A DNA stretch of 53,791 bases from the sequence record PP180001; one strand, given 5' to 3'. Shown here piece after piece: positions 2,415 to 53,791 of this stretch (the first letter of the stretch is position 1; every line of letters starts with the position of its first letter). Under the pieces are notes generated by a model, which saw only the letters and a program-made list of their open reading frames with translations, had not been told where the DNA came from and ran no database searches. This stretch comes from Escherichia phage mEp010. A program made the position numbers and the translations under genes.

Positions 2415-2845
2415 TATTGCCCCCAGCGTTTTATAAACTCATCGTTTAACTTCGTATCGCCTGACCACTGAACACCATGTTCAGCGCCGAACGAGTAGAT
2501 CAGTTCGATTAATTCGCTAAATTCTGCTTTACTCATCCGGCTGGTTGACGTGCCCAGCACAACAAATCCTGATTTATCCAGGTTAGGGACAACGCCATAT
2601 TTCTTAAGCCCGGCAGTGAATACCGCTTTCCAGTCTTCCGGCGACAGCTTTTTGCCGTACCAATTAACCTGATCGCTAATGTCGGTTAACAGCGCCCAAA
2701 GCAACGCATTTTGACTTAGCGAGCGGGTTTTCTCCTGGATGGTAATTATCAGCGGGCTTTTGCTATCAGGCTGGATCTCTCTTATCTGCCTGATAGCATT
2801 TTCTTTCACGGCGTCGTTTACTATCTCAAATCTAATTTGCCTCAT
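2414..2845 (-). CDS. ninB: NinB (Orf-family) recombination mediator
   Basis: 143 aa; strong resemblance to lambda NinB (IITIQEK.RSL.QN..LWA.L.D.S.QV.W.G..L..E.WK.VFTA). Confidence 0.85.
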   Translation of the reverse strand: MRQIRFEIVNDAVKENAIRQIREIQPDSKSPLIITIQEKTRSLSQNALLWALLTDISDQVNWYGKKLSPEDWKAVFTAGLKKYGVVPNLDKSGFVVLGTSTSRMSKAEFSELIELIYSFGAEHGVQWSGDTKLNDEFIKRWGQ

Positions 2846-3039
2846 AATACACCGTTGCTATTTTTCCATTGTGCCCGTGCGTACATAATCGCCTGCAAAG
2901 AAATTAGCCGCGAGCTTGTCATGAAAGCGCCTTTTAAATATTTCATGTCAACCGTGACAGGTTTATCAGGATCATCGCCGCGCATGTATTCCGCAATTGT
3001 GCTTAAGTCTTCCACGGTCAAATCTAATTCCCTATTCAT
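2842..3039 (-). CDS. Hypothetical protein (65 aa)
   Basis: Track ORF, 4-nt overlap with ninB start; operon packing. Confidence 0.5.
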   Translation of the reverse strand: MNRELDLTVEDLSTIAEYMRGDDPDKPVTVDMKYLKGAFMTSSRLISLQAIMYARAQWKNSNGVL

Positions 3040-3048
3040 GGTCGCCCC

Positions 3049-3255
3049 TTACACAATACGCATTGTGTTTCGTAATTCACCGCGCAACGCCTGCAAAGCG
3101 TAACGAATAGGCACAAAAGCCCGGTTAAATTTTACGTGCCTGTACTTGCGCATTAGTGGAGGCGTATAAACCATCGCGCCGCAAGAATTGCATGGAAATT
3201 TAAAGTGTGATTCGTCAATGAATGTTTCAACTGAATAAAAAATTACCCGTCTCAT
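3049..3255 (-). CDS. Hypothetical protein (68 aa, Cys-containing)
   Basis: Track ORF; start overlaps stop of upstream gene. Confidence 0.5.
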   Translation of the reverse strand: MRRVIFYSVETFIDESHFKFPCNSCGAMVYTPPLMRKYRHVKFNRAFVPIRYALQALRGELRNTMRIV

Positions 3256-3845
3256 AATTCCAACCCCGTTTCACCGTTAAGTTTTTCGATCTCAAATACT
3301 GGCTTATCAGGCAGAAGGCCGTTGTTTTTCCGGTATTCGCTCAGGCGACTATCAAAGTCAAACGCCAGATCATTAGCGTGACCGAATCGCCCAGGTTTAA
3401 ACAGCGAGTAAAAGTTAACCCCGTGCCTATTTGGATCAACGCAAAGCGTTTCATCAATCACCATTAAACGCAGAGTACGAGAAAGATAATTCCACGGTAT
3501 TCCCGTTTCAGCGCTAATGTCGCGCATACGCTTTTTAACGCTGTAGCCACCAAATAACGACGCGACACGCTCACGACGTTCAGCATATAACTGTTTAATA
3601 CGATAACCCAGCAGACGGCGGCGGCGTCCAAAACATGTATACACGCGCTCGACGATACCGTTTTTTATTAAGTGTTTAATTGTCTCAGGCAGTAACCCGT
3701 CTTTGTCATATCCAGCCAATAACCCCGTTTTATTGCGTAACTGGTGCATTGTTGCGATGCCATCAAGTTCAAGGATATTGATAACTTTTGTTTCAAGTTC
3801 AGCGCTCATTGCTTTTAGCCTCATTAAAAACGCGATAACAGCCAC
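3252..3845 (-). CDS. Hypothetical protein (197 aa) downstream of helicase
   Basis: Track ORF in leftward replication operon; no motif recognised. Confidence 0.55.
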   Translation of the reverse strand: MAVIAFLMRLKAMSAELETKVINILELDGIATMHQLRNKTGLLAGYDKDGLLPETIKHLIKNGIVERVYTCFGRRRRLLGYRIKQLYAERRERVASLFGGYSVKKRMRDISAETGIPWNYLSRTLRLMVIDETLCVDPNRHGVNFYSLFKPGRFGHANDLAFDFDSRLSEYRKNNGLLPDKPVFEIEKLNGETGLEL

Positions 3846-3888: not shown

Positions 3889-5304
3889 TTAAAAAGATGT
3901 GTTATTCTGATTGTTTCGTTGGTTAAAACGGCTTGTGCGATGATTCATTGACTGAATACACGCTGCGGCTGCGCGCGCCTGGTCGCATGGCAAGATATTA
4001 CCGTTGTCATCAAACCGCTGGTAAACAGTTCCAGACTTACCATGACGGTTTTTTGACACAATGATTTCCATGTATTCGCGGGCAACAGACTGCTCGTCGT
4101 AATACCCATCGCGGTAAACCATGATTATTCTGTCGGCATCTTGCTCAAGGTTGCCGGAATCACGCAGATCAGAATTATTAGGGCGCTTGTTTGGTCGTTC
4201 CTCAACTCGTCGTGATAATTGCGCTAGCGCTAACACTGGAACGCGCAATTCTTTTGCCATCATCTTCAACGACCATGACAATTGCCCAACGGCGAGATCA
4301 TGACGTTCTGCCTTAGCCAGCTTCATCAACCCTATGTAGTCAATCATTACCATACCCAGGTTGGGATGTTCCTGTTTCATCCGTTCCGTGGTGGCGCGTA
4401 TTTCCTCAACCGTTAACTGCGACGCGTCAACGATCCACACATCAAGATTAGCAAGTGCGCTCATACCCTGTCCGACATGCGCCCAACCCTCATCATCAAG
4501 TTTTACCGGATTGCGCAGGCAGTCAGTTGATAAATTACCAGCGCCAGCAATGGCCCGCTCAGTCATCTGATCGAGTGACATTTCAAGCGTGAAGAGCAAA
4601 ACGCCAACCCGCTGTTCTTTACTGCCAGGGTAAGGGCGTTCAGCGGCTGCGCGGGCAATTGCCAGCGCCAACGCAGATTTACCAGACCCAGGGCGTCCGG
4701 CGAGAAGTACCAAATCAGTAGCGTTAATGCCGCCCAACATTTCGTCGAGTGGTTCTATACCTGTTTTGATGTTGTCAGAATTGACACCGCATTCCATGCG
4801 CTTGCTTAAAACATCCGTATATTCCTGTACCGCATCGCGCAACAGAACCGGAATGATCTTATCTTTCGTTACCTTTAATTTTGAATACCGGGAATCAAAA
4901 TCTTTCATCGTCTCTTTGACGACCTCAAGCGTCCCCGTTTCCAGTTTGTAGCGCATATCGTCGATGAGTTCCAACATCTGCCGCCGCTGGTGCTCTTCAC
5001 GTAGTAGCTGTGCGTATCCCTTCAGGTTGGCAGCAGACGGGCACGATCGCGCCGTTTGCATTAGCGGTACGAAATTTTCATTACCAATCTCATCACCTAC
5101 CAGCAATGCATCGATGAGGTTCCTGTTTCTTGCTTGCGCCCGGATAATTTCAAAAGCCCGCTTATACAGCGGAATAGTGAACACTTCAGGATCAAGCGTA
5201 GCGAGAACATCTTGCGCGTTAGGAGTAAGGCCGCCCAACAGCAGCCCACCGATAACTGACGCCTCACGTTCCTGCCGTAGTGAGTTTATTTGCTCAGTTA
5301 CCAT
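3889..5304 (-). CDS. Replicative DNA helicase, DnaB family
   Basis: 471 aa; Walker A GRPGSGKSALALAIA, Walker B VMIDYIGLM, DnaB N-terminal domain. Confidence 0.9.
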   Translation of the reverse strand: MVTEQINSLRQEREASVIGGLLLGGLTPNAQDVLATLDPEVFTIPLYKRAFEIIRAQARNRNLIDALLVGDEIGNENFVPLMQTARSCPSAANLKGYAQLLREEHQRRQMLELIDDMRYKLETGTLEVVKETMKDFDSRYSKLKVTKDKIIPVLLRDAVQEYTDVLSKRMECGVNSDNIKTGIEPLDEMLGGINATDLVLLAGRPGSGKSALALAIARAAAERPYPGSKEQRVGVLLFTLEMSLDQMTERAIAGAGNLSTDCLRNPVKLDDEGWAHVGQGMSALANLDVWIVDASQLTVEEIRATTERMKQEHPNLGMVMIDYIGLMKLAKAERHDLAVGQLSWSLKMMAKELRVPVLALAQLSRRVEERPNKRPNNSDLRDSGNLEQDADRIIMVYRDGYYDEQSVAREYMEIIVSKNRHGKSGTVYQRFDDNGNILPCDQARAAAACIQSMNHRTSRFNQRNNQNNTSF

Positions 5305-5894
5305 TATGTCATTACCTCATGTTTACAAAATGTATTTTCGATTGGTAAAGAAATGCCGTGATTACTATGAAAGTTATATATTCTTTCTGCTTCTTTTCTT
5401 GCTTTCACGGCATCATCAAACGAATCACCGTAATAAACGTATATTGTTTTCTTTTTACCATCAGATCCCCTTATACCTATTTGCGCCCGCCATTTATGGG
5501 TTTTCTTGTTCCATGTAACGCCAACGCACCCACTAGTGTTATTTGATGGCATTATTTTATTTCTGTTATTTTCCTGCCTTGTTACCATTCTTAAATTTTC
5601 GATCCTATCGTCACCAGGGATATGGTTTATGTGGTCTATTTCCATTCCATCAGGAATAGGGCCGTTAAACATTTCCCAAATAATGCGGTGACGCCATGTA
5701 CAACAGATACCATTAACGCAGATAGTCCAATAGCCGCGATGATGCTTACTTCCAGCCACGCTACCTGCTTTTATTTTGTTATTTGCGCGGTTACAAGACC
5801 AATATAGAACGCCGTTCTTATAGGTAAATAAATCATCCCACATCATGACATCCCACCATTTCAGGTCTATATACAAAGCGACCAATTTCGCCAT
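5304..5894 (-). CDS. HNH homing endonuclease (HNH plus AP2-like domain)
   Basis: 196 aa; DHINHIPGDDRIENL...NNRNK HNH motif, GYW..CVNG and SGCVGVTWNKKTHKWRAQI AP2-like repeats; wedged between replication genes, overlapping both neighbours. Confidence 0.8.
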   Translation of the reverse strand: MAKLVALYIDLKWWDVMMWDDLFTYKNGVLYWSCNRANNKIKAGSVAGSKHHRGYWTICVNGICCTWRHRIIWEMFNGPIPDGMEIDHINHIPGDDRIENLRMVTRQENNRNKIMPSNNTSGCVGVTWNKKTHKWRAQIGIRGSDGKKKTIYVYYGDSFDDAVKARKEAERIYNFHSNHGISLPIENTFCKHEVMT

Positions 5895-6963
5895 AATCAG
5901 GACTGTAAATTATAACCGCCGCGCAACGTTGCGATCGCCAGCCTCCATTAGTTGAATAAGCGTCTTTTCCCGCTAACGTGCCGTGGTGTTCAACTATGCC
6001 TATAGATGATTCTATTACTGATTTATGGTGCAAATGTCCGACATGGACGTAAACATATTTCGACTTGCCAAAGTCTTCCCGCCAGTCAGACACACAAGCA
6101 GACAATAAATTTTCAGGTTTTTTGATTGTGTGTCCGTGGTGGTAAGCAAGGAATGTTTTGCCGTACTGTGTGTGGTGGACGATGGCAGGGGACACATCAA
6201 CCGTCACGCGCGGTTCATCTTCGTAAAAAGCCGCCAGCGCCGCACGTAGCCAGATCATTCCTGACTGGTCGTGATTGCCTGATAACACTTGGATCTCGAC
6301 GTCTTTGTGGTTTAACAACATCTTTCCAACAGCCCGCCGGACCGAACGGATCGCCACATAAACAAGTTTTGCGTAGCGTGAATCGCAATCAAGTACGTGA
6401 TTGCTTGATGGCGTAACTGGCAACAGTCCGTCAGTGTGAAGAACATCCCCGCCGAGAAGCAATACGGCTTTTTCAGACATCGGAGCAGCGCCTACAGCGT
6501 AGTCAAAGAAGTCATTCAATACGCGCTCAGCGATCCCAGTGTCGTAGCTCTCGCCGCATTCAGCTTTGTGGGCAAGTGCCCCGATATGCAAATCAAATAC
6601 CGGATAAAGGGCCAGGCTTTTTTGAAAATCAATTTCAGGCACTGGCACTGCCTCCGCGCGTGGTATTTCTTCCGTGAATGCGTCGCGGGCAGCTTCCATT
6701 AGCCTTTCCATTTCATCGCGGTCACGGGCTGTTTTAATCCAGCGCATGACCGTATTCCCAGCCTTATCGACAAGAACAGATTCACCAGTAACGCCAAAAC
6801 CCGGCGCGCGGCGCGTTGATAATAAACCGCGTTTCGCCAGCTTTGCGCCCAGCCGCTCGACGTTGCGTTTTGACATGCCATATTTTTCAGCGATCTGTTT
6901 ATACGTCAGACCGTTGTTATATTCAGCGATCAATTGCTCATCGCTGATTTTTCTTTGCGACAT
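5833..6963 (-). CDS. N-terminal HTH fused to calcineurin-like metallophosphoesterase
   Basis: 376 aa; HTH (LTYKQIAEKYGMSKRNVERL) then phosphoesterase motifs DLHIG, GGDVLHTDG, GNHD, GHLHH. Confidence 0.65.
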   Translation of the reverse strand: MSQRKISDEQLIAEYNNGLTYKQIAEKYGMSKRNVERLGAKLAKRGLLSTRRAPGFGVTGESVLVDKAGNTVMRWIKTARDRDEMERLMEAARDAFTEEIPRAEAVPVPEIDFQKSLALYPVFDLHIGALAHKAECGESYDTGIAERVLNDFFDYAVGAAPMSEKAVLLLGGDVLHTDGLLPVTPSSNHVLDCDSRYAKLVYVAIRSVRRAVGKMLLNHKDVEIQVLSGNHDQSGMIWLRAALAAFYEDEPRVTVDVSPAIVHHTQYGKTFLAYHHGHTIKKPENLLSACVSDWREDFGKSKYVYVHVGHLHHKSVIESSIGIVEHHGTLAGKDAYSTNGGWRSQRCAAVIIYSPDYGEIGRFVYRPEMVGCHDVG

Positions 6964-7124
6964 AATGTTAATTCCTCCGGTTTACAGAATGTATATTTAT
7001 TTTCCGTAAAACGCGCTACAACGCAAAAATCCACCGCGTAACCCACTTGTAAGGGTGCAGTGTCTTTTTTGCGCCAGAAGCGCAATCAGGTGGCTAATTT
7101 TTGATTTACAGACTGGTAGGTAGG

Positions 7125-7226
7125 TTATGGATTGACAAGAAGGAACAAACCGCCGAACAAAACCACGTTAACAGCGATTGCAGCGGCGATGGCAAAAGCC
7201 AGGGCGAAAACGTGTTTACCGTCCAT
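7125..7226 (-). CDS. Possible 33-aa hydrophobic micropeptide (MDGKHVFALAFAIAAAIAVNVVLFGGLFLLVNP)
   Basis: Small ORF with AGAGG-type SD in the 400-bp gap between replication genes; speculative. Confidence 0.2.
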   Translation of the reverse strand: MDGKHVFALAFAIAAAIAVNVVLFGGLFLLVNP

Positions 7227-7360
7227 TTTCGAAATCCTCTCTGTAACGCTCTATAACGAGCTAATCGCAAAAAGGTAAGCAAGTGTAGCACCACATGCGA
7301 TTTATCTCGCTGGCGAGCTTGTTTTGCGGGTTATTTTGGGTTTTTGTGGATCGTGGTTGG

Positions 7361-8368
7361 TCAAAGAGCGCCACATCGTGTATCACGTAGCGTTTTTGGT
7401 TTAAGCAGGAAATCAAGTGTCGCTATGAAGCCATTGCCGAAGTAAAAATCTGAAGCCGTGTTTTTGAACGTTTCAAAGTAGGCGACAAAGCCGTTGATGC
7501 TTTTGTCTTTCAGGTAGTCAGTGAACGCATAAATCTTGCGTTCAAGATCCCGATCCAGTTCGGCAGGTGGCAACAGGCCATCAAACGTGCTGTTAAATGC
7601 CTCCACTACGTCGGCAGCGTTTGCAGTGGCTGACAGTTTGCGCCATTTTTCAGCATCAGCCAGATACCCATCAAATTTAGTTACCCGGCAAATGTTTATA
7701 GGCTTAGGTGTTCCACCACGGCTACGCCATTGTGTTAAAGCCCACTCAATCACTAACGTGATCTCACCCTCCGTATACGCTTTACGTGTTTTTGTTTCTG
7801 TCAGTAGTTCTACGAATGGCTTAGCATCACGACATTTGCATCCTGCCTTGTCGTTGTAGAAGGCCAGGCAACGCAATGCCGCCAGGTTAACCTCCCGATC
7901 TTCTTCGCTGATAGACCGGTCTTTTTCCAATACACGGAGTGTATTGTTTTTAATGTTCTCTTTACTGGTTATATATGACTGGTTAGGGTGACTCTGTGAC
8001 ACTACCCCCGGTGACTCTGTGTCACTACCCCGGTGACTCTGTGTCACTACCCCCGGTGTCACTGTGACACTACCATGCAATGACGGAAGGACTATTACAT
8101 AGAAATTACTAGTTTGCTCTTTTCCTCCGATTAAATATCTTGGTTGTTTAATCAACAACCCTTTTTCACAAAGTGAGTCTACAGCCCTCATAGCTGTTCT
8201 TTTGCTGATCTCACACTCCTTTGCTATGTGATGGTAAGAAGGATAACACTCTCCGTTATCATTAGCGTTATCAGCTAACTTCAACAGCACCAGTTTGTGC
8301 ATTGGGTCGCCGACCTCAGTATGGAAGACCTCTACCATTAGCCGCATACTCATAAGCATTAACCTCAT
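7361..8368 (-). CDS. Replication initiator (O-like; winged-HTH N-domain, origin iterons inside gene)
   Basis: 335 aa; iteron array embedded in the coding sequence as in lambda O; adjacent to helicase. Confidence 0.7.
   Translation of the reverse strand: MRLMLMSMRLMVEVFHTEVGDPMHKLVLLKLADNANDNGECYPSYHHIAKECEISKRTAMRAVDSLCEKGLLIKQPRYLIGGKEQTSNFYVIVLPSLHGSVTVTPGVVTQSHRGSDTESPGVVSQSHPNQSYITSKENIKNNTLRVLEKDRSISEEDREVNLAALRCLAFYNDKAGCKCRDAKPFVELLTETKTRKAYTEGEITLVIEWALTQWRSRGGTPKPINICRVTKFDGYLADAEKWRKLSATANAADVVEAFNSTFDGLLPPAELDRDLERKIYAFTDYLKDKSINGFVAYFETFKNTASDFYFGNGFIATLDFLLKPKTLRDTRCGAL
7986..8074. repeat. Origin iterons: four tandem ~22-bp repeats (GGTGACTCTGTGTCACTACCCC), each with a GTGAC-N5-GTCAC palindrome, flanked by an AT-rich stretch (7940-7985)
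   Basis: Seen directly; encodes the GVVTQSH-repeat linker of the initiator. Confidence 0.75.
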
Positions 8369-8374
8369 GACGAA

Positions 8375-8620
8375 CTAAAACATTAACTGATAAACGCAGA
8401 AGAAACCTGGCAGCTGGCTGATTAGGCCGCTTCTTTTCAGTTGATGCAGTGCAGAGATAGTGTCGCGTAACGAAATTTCGCACATTTCCGCGATCTCTTC
8501 TGGCGTTACTTCGCTTTTGCCGTTGCATCCAGCCTTTGTTGCCAGTGCAATTAAGATGAGTTTTTGCGCCGGATCATTGTTATTCAGGCGAATATCAAAA
8601 GCCTTGCGCACGTAATACAT
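8375..8620 (-). CDS. Winged-HTH regulatory protein at the Cro position (paralogous to initiator N-domain)
   Basis: 81 aa; first gene of leftward operon, divergent from repressor; HTH segment EEIAEMCEISLRDTISALHQLKRSGLI parallels the initiator N-terminus. Confidence 0.55.
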   Translation of the reverse strand: MYYVRKAFDIRLNNNDPAQKLILIALATKAGCNGKSEVTPEEIAEMCEISLRDTISALHQLKRSGLISQLPGFFCVYQLMF

Positions 8621-9577: not shown

Positions 9578-9601
9578 GCCGCCGGATGGCGGCTTTTCTT
9601 T
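9578..9601 (+). terminator. Rho-independent terminator after repressor gene
   Basis: GCCGCC-GGAT-GGCGGC hairpin followed by TTTTCTTT. Confidence 0.7.
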
Positions 9602-9695
9602 GTCTGAAAAAACACCAAAACGTAAACAGAAAACGCTATTTATTGTTTAAATATCAATAGCATATAAAATATTTTAAAAAAGTATACAAAATGGA

Positions 9696-9724
9696 TTGAC
9701 TTGGTGTTTTACGGGGCGTATATT
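9696..9724 (+). promoter_or_regulatory. Rightward early promoter (PL-equivalent): TTGACT-17 bp-TATATT
   Basis: Near-consensus sigma-70 hexamers with 17-bp spacer; recurrent motif GTATACAAAATGG abuts the -35. Confidence 0.65.
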
Positions 9725-49100: not shown

Positions 49101-51240
49101 CACGATGGATTCTAACCTCAAAAGTCAGATCTCCAGTGTGGAACGTGCAGTGGCTGACGAAACAAGTGCCCGCGCTGAAGCAATTAACAGCGTGAACGCA
49201 TCAATAAGCAATCTCGACAAGAAAACCGACGCCAGCGTGAACCGCCTTGATCAAGCCATCGCAGACGAAACAAGCGCCCGCTCACAGGCTATCAGCGGCG
49301 TGAATGCGTCAATAAGCAATCTTGAAAGCAAAACAGACGCCAGCGTTTCACGTCTTGATAAGGCAATATCTGACGAAACGCAGGCAAGAAGCGACGCAAT
49401 AACAGAGGTCAAAGCTGATTTAACAACGCTCGAAAGTAACACAAACGCCAGCGTTAAACGCTTAGACCAGGCTATTGCTGACGAATCAAGCGCCCGTGCT
49501 CAGGCTATATCTGGAATCAGCGCCGAACTTGGCAAGGTTGAAAATAACGTTGACAAGAACAGCGACGAAATAAGCCAGACCAAAGCAAGCCTGCAAAACG
49601 CCTCGATTGCGCTGATTAACAACTCAATCGCTCAAACCAACACGCGTGTTACGCTTACGGCCCAATACAAGAAAGGACGCAGCGAAACCAACGCGCAAAT
49701 TGACCGCATTGACAACGTTATTGCTGAAGAGAAAAAGGCTACAGCGGAAGCAGTTAGCGTGGTGAAAGCATCGATCACGGATCTTGATAAGAAGACTGAC
49801 GCGAGTGTTTCCCGTCTCGACAAGGCTATCGCTGACGAAACCAGCGCACGCAGCGAGGCGGTAAGCGACGTTAACGCAAGCGTTTCAGCGCTCGACAAGA
49901 AAACCGACGCCAGCGTTAAACGCCTGGACCAGGCAATTGCAGATGAGACAAGCGCAAGAACTGAAGCTATCAGCGGTGTGAACGCAAGCATTAACACGCT
50001 TGAAAGCAACACTGAATCTGAAGTTAACAGAATTGACCAGGCAATCGCTGACGAGGCCAGCGCCCGCGCTCAGGCCATCAGCGGCGTGAACGCATCAATT
50101 TCCACGCTTGATAGCAAGGTTACAAGCAACGTGACCCGCATCGACAAGGCCATTGCAGACGAAACGAAGGCACGCACTGACGCAATAAGTAGCCTTAATT
50201 CATCGCTTACCAGTACGATTAACTCGAAGGTGTCTGAGGTATCAACGGCGCTTTCTACACATGAAGCATCAAGCGCGGAAAAATTCGGCCAGATCTCAGC
50301 GTCTTTCGAATCCGTAAACTCAAGTATTACAGAATGGTCGCAGGCCATGACAACCGCTGACGATGCATTGTCAACCAAAATTGATCAGTTAACAGTAACC
50401 GTTAACGGGAACACAACGGCGATAGAGACAACATCGAAAGCGTTAACAGACTTCAAAGGCAATGTTGATGCGTCGTACTCTATCAAGCTGGCAACCGACA
50501 ACAACGGCATGAAGTACGCGACAGGTATGTCGCTTGGCCTTACTGGTGACGGCACTAACTTTCAATCGCAGTGTATTTTCCTGGTTGACAGGTTCGCGCT
50601 AATGACTGCGGCAAACGGCACATATCAAACGCCTTTCTATATCGAAAATGGTGCAATGTATGTACGGGAAGCGTTTATTAAAAACGGTTCAATCGACAAT
50701 GCAAAAATAGGCAATGTCATAACGTCCTACAACTGGAACGGCAACGATCAAGGGTGGGCGATAGTTAAAGATGGCTGGGCTGTATTTAACAACGTTACAG
50801 TACGCGGCACGGTATACGCTAATGCTGGGGTGTTTAACGGTACTGTTTACGCAAATGACGGTAAATTCTCTGGAACAGTGGAGGCAAATTCATTTATCGG
50901 TGATGTTGCAAATATGTACACAGGATCTGACGTTAGCAGGTCAAACAATGGTGTACTTCAAAAAGTAATTACATATACAGACACAACAGCAGCAGCCCAC
51001 AGGAGACATATTTGCGTTATGGCAAACGTTAAAGGTAACGGTGCTTGCACAGTAAACATTAACGGATCAGAAAAGGGCTTGTCTGTAAATGATAATGAAC
51101 GGCTTATCATGCACTCTGCGGCGGTATATGGACAGAACGTTACAGTAGTGATTAGCATATCCGCTCAGAATGGTAGGGGTGCGTATATATTCTCACCGAC
51201 CGTTATAGTATCGCGCGGCTCTGGTTCATTCTCTGGATAA
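46117..51240 (+). CDS. J: Central tail fibre / host specificity protein J (expanded, 1707 aa)
   Basis: N-terminal and C-terminal thirds resemble lambda gpJ; ~540-aa internal coiled-coil repeat insertion. Confidence 0.85.
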   Translation: MSSGGGKAKTPTLLNDNLYHKQFYRVLDILSEGPIYGPVNQKAPLNSVMLNDTPITDANGNTSVPGVSVAWRNGTADQSPINGFNAIESTVIVNAKVTHDTPIIRTISDPNVNRVRLNLGVDSLVQSDDKGNQYNTSVTLMVDVKPSSSTTWSLVKDIHIGPGKQSGEYLEAHIIKAPDEKPFDIRVRRVTPDSTGDLLHNDTRWSSYSEIIDDNLSYPHTAVAGAVIDHDQYTDTPTRTYHMRGLIVDVPDNYDPETRTYSGLWLGGFKKAYTNNPAWLFRYLVKNERFGLARHAGYIDIDDGALYTLSQYCDQLVNDGYGGFEPRMTLNAYITEQMSARDLLDNIAGMFRGIALWDGQRLTVMIDAPQDPIATITNANVVDGAFTRSSIARAESYNAVIVSWTDPENGWEQSKEYVADDELIARDGYNETTLEAFGCTSRGQAYRAGKWLIETAKREPSKFTFKMARDAIHFTPGDIIEILDNNRAGARLGGRIVANNGKVITVDKVDSDLVAAGDTISLLDSDGKFKKHQITGVNGNNITLAAAPAWIRNGTVFAVSTESAKPVLCRITSVAETENNSVYTIEAAQHDTHKQAVVDEGAIFEVNNDTLNHFRVPNIENLKVLNVGSETVQCRATWETQTTTHRLTFEIRVYNAEGRVVAAYETTNYRYDFYGLDAGSYTLGIRGRNDTGMKGAESIVDLVIGAPAAPIGVNWVPGVFQATVYPISKTTLTTDTAYEFYFSGENQITDPSKVTTLAQFTGRGYQWTFGGMNTGHTYYVYVRTRNAFGVSDFVEASGKPTENFDEISDYVTKDVINSEQFKGMIGDIKDLGDRADLIESATNDLKNATDSLKTATDNLTNITEDLRTDTDGLITETGAIKADTDTLKKETEDLYKKVGENTDGIGQHEVRIDSLEVSSERIDSELAQAKASLQNASLALINNSLAQTNTRVTLTAQYKKGKSETNAQIDRIDNVIAEEKKATAESLKTITAEMNTMDSNLKSQISSVERAVADETSARAEAINSVNASISNLDKKTDASVNRLDQAIADETSARSQAISGVNASISNLESKTDASVSRLDKAISDETQARSDAITEVKADLTTLESNTNASVKRLDQAIADESSARAQAISGISAELGKVENNVDKNSDEISQTKASLQNASIALINNSIAQTNTRVTLTAQYKKGRSETNAQIDRIDNVIAEEKKATAEAVSVVKASITDLDKKTDASVSRLDKAIADETSARSEAVSDVNASVSALDKKTDASVKRLDQAIADETSARTEAISGVNASINTLESNTESEVNRIDQAIADEASARAQAISGVNASISTLDSKVTSNVTRIDKAIADETKARTDAISSLNSSLTSTINSKVSEVSTALSTHEASSAEKFGQISASFESVNSSITEWSQAMTTADDALSTKIDQLTVTVNGNTTAIETTSKALTDFKGNVDASYSIKLATDNNGMKYATGMSLGLTGDGTNFQSQCIFLVDRFALMTAANGTYQTPFYIENGAMYVREAFIKNGSIDNAKIGNVITSYNWNGNDQGWAIVKDGWAVFNNVTVRGTVYANAGVFNGTVYANDGKFSGTVEANSFIGDVANMYTGSDVSRSNNGVLQKVITYTDTTAAAHRRHICVMANVKGNGACTVNINGSEKGLSVNDNERLIMHSAAVYGQNVTVVISISAQNGRGAYIFSPTVIVSRGSGSFSG
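48880..50250 (+). repeat. In-frame tandem repeats inside J (about ten ~36-aa/~110-bp units; plus a ~170-bp block duplicated 678 bp apart at ~48904 and ~49582)
   Basis: Units of form DASV.RLD.AIADETSAR..AISGVNASIS.L.SKT; antisense track ORFs here are repeat artefacts. Confidence 0.7.
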
Positions 51241-53694: not shown

Positions 53695-53721
53695 AAACGA
53701 GGCTAACGCCTCGTTTCTTTT
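53695..53721 (+). terminator. Rho-independent terminator after tail fibre gene
   Basis: ACGAGGC-TAAC-GCCTCGT hairpin plus TTTCTTTTT. Confidence 0.7.
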
Positions 53722-53745
53722 TGTGTACCAAATTGTGACCAAATT
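53722..53745. repeat. 24-bp direct repeat, right copy (TGTGTACCAAATTGTGACCAAATT); candidate att core / prophage boundary
   Basis: 23 of 24 identity with 162-185; directly follows the tail-fibre terminator. Confidence 0.45.
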
Positions 53746-53791
53746 GATAAATCAAAAACAAAAACAAAGCATAAGATGTTGAATACAAATT

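Follow-up and report, generated by a model that had tools for sequence, protein, structure and literature searches.

A probable vegetative replication origin within the initiator gene of Escherichia phage mEp010

Escherichia phage mEp010 (sequence record PP180001), whose 53,791 nucleotides are referred to here as the window, carries in its replication initiator gene (7361-8368, minus strand) a tandem array of four dyad-symmetric repeats, or iterons, next to an AT-rich segment. We consider the stretch 7920-8074, with a probability of about 85%, to be the vegetative replication origin of an mEp021-type (mEpimmI) temperate coliphage, situated where its own initiator gene codes for the linker. Four dyad sites come first in the layout; then, in a stretch of 30% GC, come two direct repeats of AACCAGT(C/A)A, and last a short inverted repeat. 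Two features of lambdoid origins are present, namely at least two tandem dyad repeats between the N- and C-terminal domains of the initiator and an adjoining, easily melted AT-rich segment on the promoter-distal side. An earlier note on this DNA had proposed a lambda-like origin within the initiator gene, and every prediction of that proposal that can be tested at the level of sequence is borne out. The architecture itself is textbook, the design of the lambda and P22 origins being known, and it otherwise leaves current understanding unchanged. This instance is unannotated in the mEp records: an origin annotation is absent from all five mEp GenBank records inspected, and the genome paper on the mEpimmI group (PMC11893012) mentions neither an origin nor iterons.

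The iteron array and the protein in whose gene it lies

Tandem Repeats Finder reports positions 7987-8074 as one array with a period of 23 base pairs (bp), 3.9 copies, 90% matches and a score of 141, the second-highest tandem-repeat score in the window. A search of the window with GGTGWCNNNNNGWCACTACC, allowing at most 2 mismatches, returns exactly four matches, starting at 7987, 8010, 8032 and 8055; shuffled sequences give an expectation of 0.15 matches, and four were reached in none of 100 shuffles. The units are arranged head-to-tail with lengths of 23, 22, 23 and 20 bp, and the spacing of 22-23 bp corresponds to roughly two helical turns. The earlier description, four tandem repeats of ~22 bp that each contain GTGAC-N5-GTCAC, holds for the number of repeats, but the core occurs only in iterons 2 (8010-8031, GGTGACTCTGTGTCACTACCCC) and 3 (8032-8054, GGTGACTCTGTGTCACTACCCCC). 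Iteron 1 (7987-8009, GGTGACTCTGTGACACTACCCCC) combines hybrid half-sites, GTGAC-N5-GACAC, into an imperfect palindrome, and iteron 4 (8055-8074, GGTGTCACTGTGACACTACC) carries the dyad GTGTC-N5-GACAC, its 7-bp arms (GTGTCAC-T-GTGACAC) forming a longer palindrome than those of iterons 2 and 3. A CRP site (TGTGA-N6-TCACA) was considered as the identity of the iterons and rejected by eye, as the spacing does not fit.

Tandem-repeat, pattern and core searches revealed no second array of like properties in the window. Extra iteron copies elsewhere, for example in a promoter where they might serve autoregulation, were also looked for; the single loose core match, at 65-79 (GTGTCACATCGTCAC), lies within a different set of repeats and was judged unrelated. 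That set, a cluster of (C/T)ATCGTGTCA-like 9-10-mers at 45-150 near the left end of the window, is probably a different protein-binding array, of a terminase or a regulator.

The array encodes the peptide GSVTVTP / GVVTQSHR / GSDTESP / GVVSQSHP. As the spacing alternates between 23 and 22 bp, adjacent iterons are translated in different frames, so that one DNA unit is read in two. The repeated GVVTQSH linker that the earlier note had pointed out is thus a real peptide repetition, but a two-fold one, since neighbouring repeats lie in different frames.

The longest open reading frame (ORF) of the initiator gene codes for 335 amino acids; in relatives the annotated start lies 3 or 5 codons further downstream. 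In the product, a winged helix at the N-terminus is joined by a disordered linker to a helical C-domain. The N-terminal HTH_36 domain (8081-8353, minus strand) is found by Pfam with an E value of 5e-15 and 55.5 bits, above the gathering cut-off of 25, has a confident AlphaFold2 fold and is presumed to be the iteron-binding module, with a recognition helix at about residues 55-68. The protein also matches PHROG families 428, 8540, 345 and 270 ('replication initiation O-like') with E values of 1e-24 to 1e-37, in agreement with the original placement of the repeats inside an initiator coding region. The C-terminal segment (amino acids 250-335; 7364-7621, minus strand) is homologous to the C-terminus of the P22 gene 18 protein, gp18. 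The BLASTP match covers the C-terminus only (36% identity over 90 amino acids, E 5e-14), tblastn finds further matches in P22-like phages, and the segment is presumed to be a helicase-recruiting module. By sequence, the initiator is of the HTH_36 type with a P22-gp18-like C-terminus and not a member of the lambda O family.

In the AlphaFold model, built with 36 homologues, residues 1-91 form a winged helix and residues 150-330 a helical C-domain, both predicted with confidence, whereas the predicted local distance difference test (pLDDT) score is below 50 for residues 92-148 between them. This predicted disordered linker, encoded at 7910-8080, spans exactly the repeats, the AT-rich stretch and the inverted repeat. 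When PDB sequences were searched with the family profile, all matches were weak ones to generic winged-helix regulators, with no plasmid Rep homologue among them; plasmid iteron initiators (Rep_3 / RepA_N) were matched neither in that search nor in the Pfam scan. Foldseek returned nothing below E 0.001, the winged-helix similarity being generic.

On the promoter-distal side of the iterons lies the AT-rich segment that had been noticed beside the repeats (7920-7986, ~30% GC), which is presumed to be the DNA-unwinding region. Its duplex stability is at the 99.3-99.7 percentile, placing it within the 1% least stable stretches of the window. The opposite flank (8092-8151) is equally AT-rich but codes for conserved N-domain. 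The part of the segment directly after the iterons (7953-7986, minus strand) is near-invariant in its DNA in close relatives and is a candidate conserved origin element. It contains two direct copies of AACCAGT(C/A)A on the minus strand, at 7976-7984 and 7962-7970, and the gene strand after the last repeat reads CCCT-AACCAGTCA-TATAT-AACCAGTAA (7962-7984, minus strand). The far end of the segment is occupied by the inverted repeat CAATACAC-N3-GTGTATTG (7928-7946), which is kept also in phages with a different N-domain and, together with a T-run, scores as terminator-like in the antisense direction relative to the initiator gene. Where relatives carry another allele, the inverted repeat is a different one, GATATA-N6-TATATC with CCCCCT repeats, which resembles the right end of the P22 origin as annotated (TACCCCCTTACCCCCTAAAGGGGG).

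Variation of sites, domains and the AACCAGT motif among relatives

Across its full length, the replication/immunity region shows 90-94% identity to those of Escherichia phages mEp044, mEp554 and mEp021, and over 81% of it 95% identity to that of mEp013. These phages belong to a group of temperate coliphages, 'mEpimmI', that are Nus-dependent and non-lambdoid (PMC11893012). Arrays in the same register are present in four mEp phages, seven Escherichia coli prophages and five IMG/VR contigs, and across these close relatives the frame ACTACCCC(C)GGT is invariant. Most contain four iterons, strain RM9245 has two, and strain N1286 and one IMG/VR contig have six. Because the spacing alternates between 23 and 22 bp, the array can grow or shrink only in steps of 45 bp (15 codons) without breaking the gene, and the copy-number changes among close relatives always occur in such steps. 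The absence of iterons from relatives with a conserved initiator had been named as an outcome that would speak against an origin; the array is instead kept in all 15 close relatives sharing the N-domain, and distant homologues have arrays of their own at the equivalent position. The prophage of E. coli strain 190, probably a decaying element, has intact iterons, downstream of which its initiator gene (locus 1501-2435) is broken into two ORFs.

The cores are of three types, GTGAC/GTCAC, GTGTC/GACAC and GTTGC/GCCAC. Both half-sites change together at the inner base pair (A-T, T-A or G-C), which preserves the dyad, and the site type tracks the recognition helix. Initiators with R57/S65 (...SKRTAMRAVDS...) pair with GTGAC sites, those with S57/A65 (...KSTAMRA(V/I)DA...) pair with GTGTC sites in two otherwise different N-domain backgrounds, and a helix with ...NKSTAMRAIEALCK... 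pairs with GTTGC sites. The N-domain of mEp554 differs from that of the window at three positions (D21N, R57S and S65A), and its sites are without exception GTGTC sites. Residue 57 seems to act as a natural switch, its change from Arg to Ser shifting the iteron specificity from A-T to T-A. Further, Vibrio-type homologues (~50% identity) with [KR]RTAMR have GTGAC-N5-GTCAC cores, an independent recurrence, at the level of sequence, of the association with Arg57.

More distantly, homologous N-domains (45-52% identity) are found in SfV, ST64B, Stx2 phages, Min27, ZF40, Stenotrophomonas phage BUCT709 and Vibrio phages, as well as in 80 IMG/VR loci. In these homologues the N-domain is followed by one to six tandem dyad repeats of 21-24 bp with a family-specific sequence, examples being CTGTGC-N9-GCACAG, GGGCAG-GAG-CTGCCC and TAGTGAC-N5-GTCACC; SfV, ST64B, Min27, ZF40, BUCT709 and Vibrio D186 each have three to five dyad repeats of their own right after the N-domain. 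Among otherwise near-identical Min27-type initiator genes, the repeat GGTGGGGCAGGAGCTGCCC is present in 1 to 5.8 copies; as its period (21 or 24 bp) is divisible by three, the number changes one unit at a time.

The two halves of the gene are exchanged separately. Only the C-terminal half (7361-7882, 91-96% nucleotide identity) is common to 28 of 35 E. coli prophage matches, mEp515 and MagusPhagus. In the two of these that were inspected, mEp515 and the FAH prophage, the N-domain is of the different Lin1244/Lin1753 type, and the equivalent position carries 4.2 copies of TTCATGACCCT with the palindrome TCATGA, beside a TTCTAA-rich run. Repeats and N-domain thus behave as one specificity unit, in that the three site types track the helix and swapped N-domains bring different repeats.

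The motif in the AT-rich segment extends well beyond the close relatives. The core AACCAGT is found after the repeats, usually as two or three copies of (G)AACCAGTCA, in 73 of 79 distinct related initiator genes from enterobacterial, Vibrio, Pectobacterium and Stenotrophomonas phages. The 250 nucleotides after the N-domain of these 79 genes hold 118 occurrences, or 6.0 per kb, whereas the remainder of these loci has 0.18 per kb. The AACCAGTCA motif is translated in all three frames (as RTSH, EPV, NQS or ITSK), and in one subgroup both copies have changed in parallel to AACCTGTCA. Its persistence despite differing repeats, C-domains and helicase partners points to a role at the DNA level in the unwinding region. 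It could act, for example, as a site of sequence-specific single-strand binding or of helicase entry, like the Rep-bound 13-mers in the DNA-unwinding elements of plasmids or the DnaA-trios. A literature search on the motif string retrieved only unrelated primers and microRNA sequences. Tentatively, the (G)AACCAGTCA direct repeats may constitute a new origin element, not described before, that is common to the whole lineage of HTH_36-type phage initiators.

Alternative readings, opposing evidence and neighbouring genes

The sites could instead be operators that the initiator or a regulator uses for control, with the true origin elsewhere; they would then serve autoregulation, a transcriptional roadblock, copy control by handcuffing, or binding of an 81-amino-acid paralogue. 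This reading draws on the control functions that plasmid iterons also serve, on the stand-alone paralogue of the N-domain encoded just upstream, and on the fact that the least stable DNA of the window lies elsewhere. However, the window holds no other array of such properties, and this one goes together with an AT-rich segment and with the junction of the N- and C-domains, as in the genetically proven origins of lambda and P22. Control and initiation are moreover compatible and not mutually exclusive. The paralogue (8375-8620, minus strand; 37% identity over 59 amino acids, E 2e-10) is the first gene of the early operon and faces the cI-like repressor gene. As a binder of the iterons it was set aside: the paralogue (35-38% identity) also stands beside the unrelated Lin1244-type initiator of mEp515 and the FAH prophage, its type being unchanged when initiator and repeats are swapped, and the gene is absent from three iteron-bearing prophages. 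Possibly, it is a regulator in the position of Cro. Collectively, these observations make a pure control function of the array unlikely.

If selection had acted on a flexible peptide linker (PGVVxQSH / GSxTxxP), the symmetry of the DNA would be incidental. The segment does encode a predicted disordered linker, and the length of this linker is variable among relatives, but the same DNA unit yields two unrelated peptides in two frames, and across lineages the cassette is translated in different frames. The pattern of constraint is also that of DNA. Over 16 distinct close-relative genes, diversity at third codon positions is 0.34-0.47 in the 3' part of the N-domain, falls to 0.04-0.13 in the repeats and about 0.12 in 7949-7993 (the AT-rich/AACCAGT segment), and is 0.25-0.41 beyond that segment. 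Synonymous diversity is thus lowest where amino-acid-changing positions vary: the variable positions within the repeats are core bases that change amino acids, and the half-site changes are compensatory and preserve the dyad. Selection for the peptide is, on this evidence, very improbable.

There is similarly little to recommend the view that the conserved sequences mark a recombination joint between exchangeable N- and C-modules and are kept by descent without any function in cis. While the gene is clearly mosaic, with homology to Lin1244-type prophages stopping at ~7882 and with C-domains that differ among relatives sharing the AACCAGTCA motif, the megablast breakpoint lies ~100 bp from the iterons and not inside them. 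Motifs of 7-9 bp would be too small to drive homologous exchange, and a joint leaves the four tandem dyads, their co-variation with the recognition helix and the variation in copy number unexplained. Finally, the idea that the dyads form hairpins in the early mRNA, acting in translation pausing, stability or attenuation, is rejected as extremely unlikely, for even though compensatory changes in the arms would keep RNA stems too, the sense strand folds no better than shuffled sequences (z = -0.42; 62 of 200 shuffles fold as well), the stems have just 5 bp, and the hybrids (GTGAC/GACAC) and GTTGC/GCCAC contain non-wobble mismatches that half-site recognition could tolerate and short stems could not.

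Several points nevertheless weigh against an origin at 7920-8074, or lower the value of the evidence for it. The evidence is comparative, not experimental. The recognition helix and the sites are only ~150 bp apart, so that their association may partly reflect linkage and not co-adaptation, and with only about three specificity types the independent events are few. Some Min27-type relatives have a single repeat, so that not every member of the wider family has multiple copies. The lowest duplex stability in the window is found not in the iteron flank but at 9593-9696 (13-21% GC). Cumulative GC skew, which the earlier note had suggested as a check, has its minimum at 7-9 kb; this is consistent with an origin there, but the minimum is not independent evidence because it coincides with the switch in transcription direction at ~8.7-8.9 kb. 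The Pfam scan at E <= 0.01 gave only HTH_36, MarR_2 and DnaD_N and no lambda O-type match, lambda O having been judged through Pfam models with no direct comparison with the lambda O protein; the mechanism is for this reason drawn from analogy and from the partial C-terminal homology to P22 gp18.

As to the surroundings, 9593-9696 lies directly downstream of the cI-like repressor gene, and Tandem Repeats Finder detects no array there. Downstream of the initiator in the same operon is a gene for a DnaB-type replicative helicase (3889-5304, minus strand; Pfam DnaB_C E 1.5e-75, DnaB N-domain E 8e-12), which by analogy with P22 gene 12 is presumed to be the partner of the initiator C-domain. An HNH/AP2-type endonuclease gene (5304-5894, minus strand) is inserted between the helicase gene and a gene for a 376-amino-acid PHROG 'DNA repair exonuclease' (5833-6963, minus strand), with which it overlaps by 62 bp. 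The slot between initiator and exonuclease holds variable cargo: in mEp010 it is ~400 bp long (6963-7361) with small ORFs only, in mEp021 (locus 2491-3614) it contains a zinc-ribbon gene with 5.9 copies of a 183-bp repeat, and in several prophages it is filled by Rha-family regulators. The strongest tandem repeat of the window, a 108-bp unit in 2.1 copies (77% matches, score 270), is located in the late region at 49153-49379. The sequence (T/G)TGTGTACCAAA occurs at both ends of the window, at 158-171 and 53721-53746, which suggests that the window represents a complete genome and that its ends meet inside a regulatory region with repeats.

Proposed mechanism and comparison with known systems

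By analogy with lambda O and ori-lambda and with P22 gp18 and gp12, dimers of the N-terminal winged helix would bind the four sites, one monomer per half-site; the variable inner base pair would be read by residue 57 (Arg or Ser), with which the recognition helix begins. The resulting nucleoprotein complex may then melt the adjacent AT-rich/AACCAGTCA segment, aided by supercoiling and by transcription of the early operon through it, and the P22-gp18-like C-domain would recruit the phage's own DnaB-type helicase (3889-5304). A probable replication origin is thereby located for the mEpimmI coliphages, one in which the same bases serve as a cis-acting element and as coding sequence. With three specificity types, hybrid sites and arrays of two, four or six copies, the group offers a natural series for the study of how a winged-helix initiator reads its sites.

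Among the systems compared here are the staphylococcal RepA_N plasmids, iteron plasmids that have their origin within the rep gene. The winged-helix N-domain of pSK41 RepA reportedly binds repeats in the central, linker-coding part of its own gene (Schumacher et al. 2014). Structures of RepA N-domains (4pql, 5kbj and 4pt7) are among the top Foldseek matches of the initiator, but this is a weak, generic similarity of fold (E 0.01-0.07, template-modelling score about 0.45) with no sequence homology, and the RepA_N systems belong to plasmids of a different host group.

In the lambdoid design, iterons and an AT-rich tract lie in the middle of gene O, with four versus six copies among lambda and Stx phages (PMC7466680). 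The mEp010 region resembles the lambda origin in its four tandem, imperfectly palindromic initiator sites of ~20 bp in mid-gene, in the promoter-distal AT-rich tract followed by an inverted repeat, in the variation of copy number (here two, four or six), and in an N-domain that forms one exchangeable specificity module with its iterons. Unlike lambda O, the initiator has an HTH_36 domain without detectable membership of the lambda O family, and the iteron sequence is unrelated. The partner here would be a phage DnaB-type helicase, whereas lambda employs P as a loader for the host DnaB. The alternating 23/22-bp spacing that places the repeats in two frames and the conserved AACCAGTCA repeat in the AT-rich part also set mEp010 apart from lambda.

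P22 shares with mEp010 a homologous initiator C-terminus, a gene for a DnaB-like helicase in the same operon (gene 12), an annotated rep_origin within the initiator gene (codons ~118-166 of gene 18, compared with ~99-150 here) and the order of repeats, AT-rich run and inverted repeat. The N-terminal DNA-binding domain and the repeats are, however, unrelated in sequence to those of P22, and in mEp010 the helicase gene is separated from the initiator by the exonuclease-like and HNH genes.

Further parallels are with the HTH_36 'O-like' initiators of SfV, ST64B, Min27/Stx2, ZF40 and Vibrio phages. No array is annotated as an origin in the eight records of such phages that were inspected, and a literature search found no descriptions of iterons for SfV, ZF40, ST64B or Min27. 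These relatives differ from mEp010 in having other C-domains and helicase partners and repeat periods that are multiples of three (21 or 24 bp). They have in common with it the homologous N-domain, the dyad repeats and two or three copies of (G)AACCAGTCA, and in several of them the site frame TAGTGnn-N5-nnCACC recurs as well; the conservation of the AACCAGTCA repeats points to a testable origin-opening step that may be shared across many phages.

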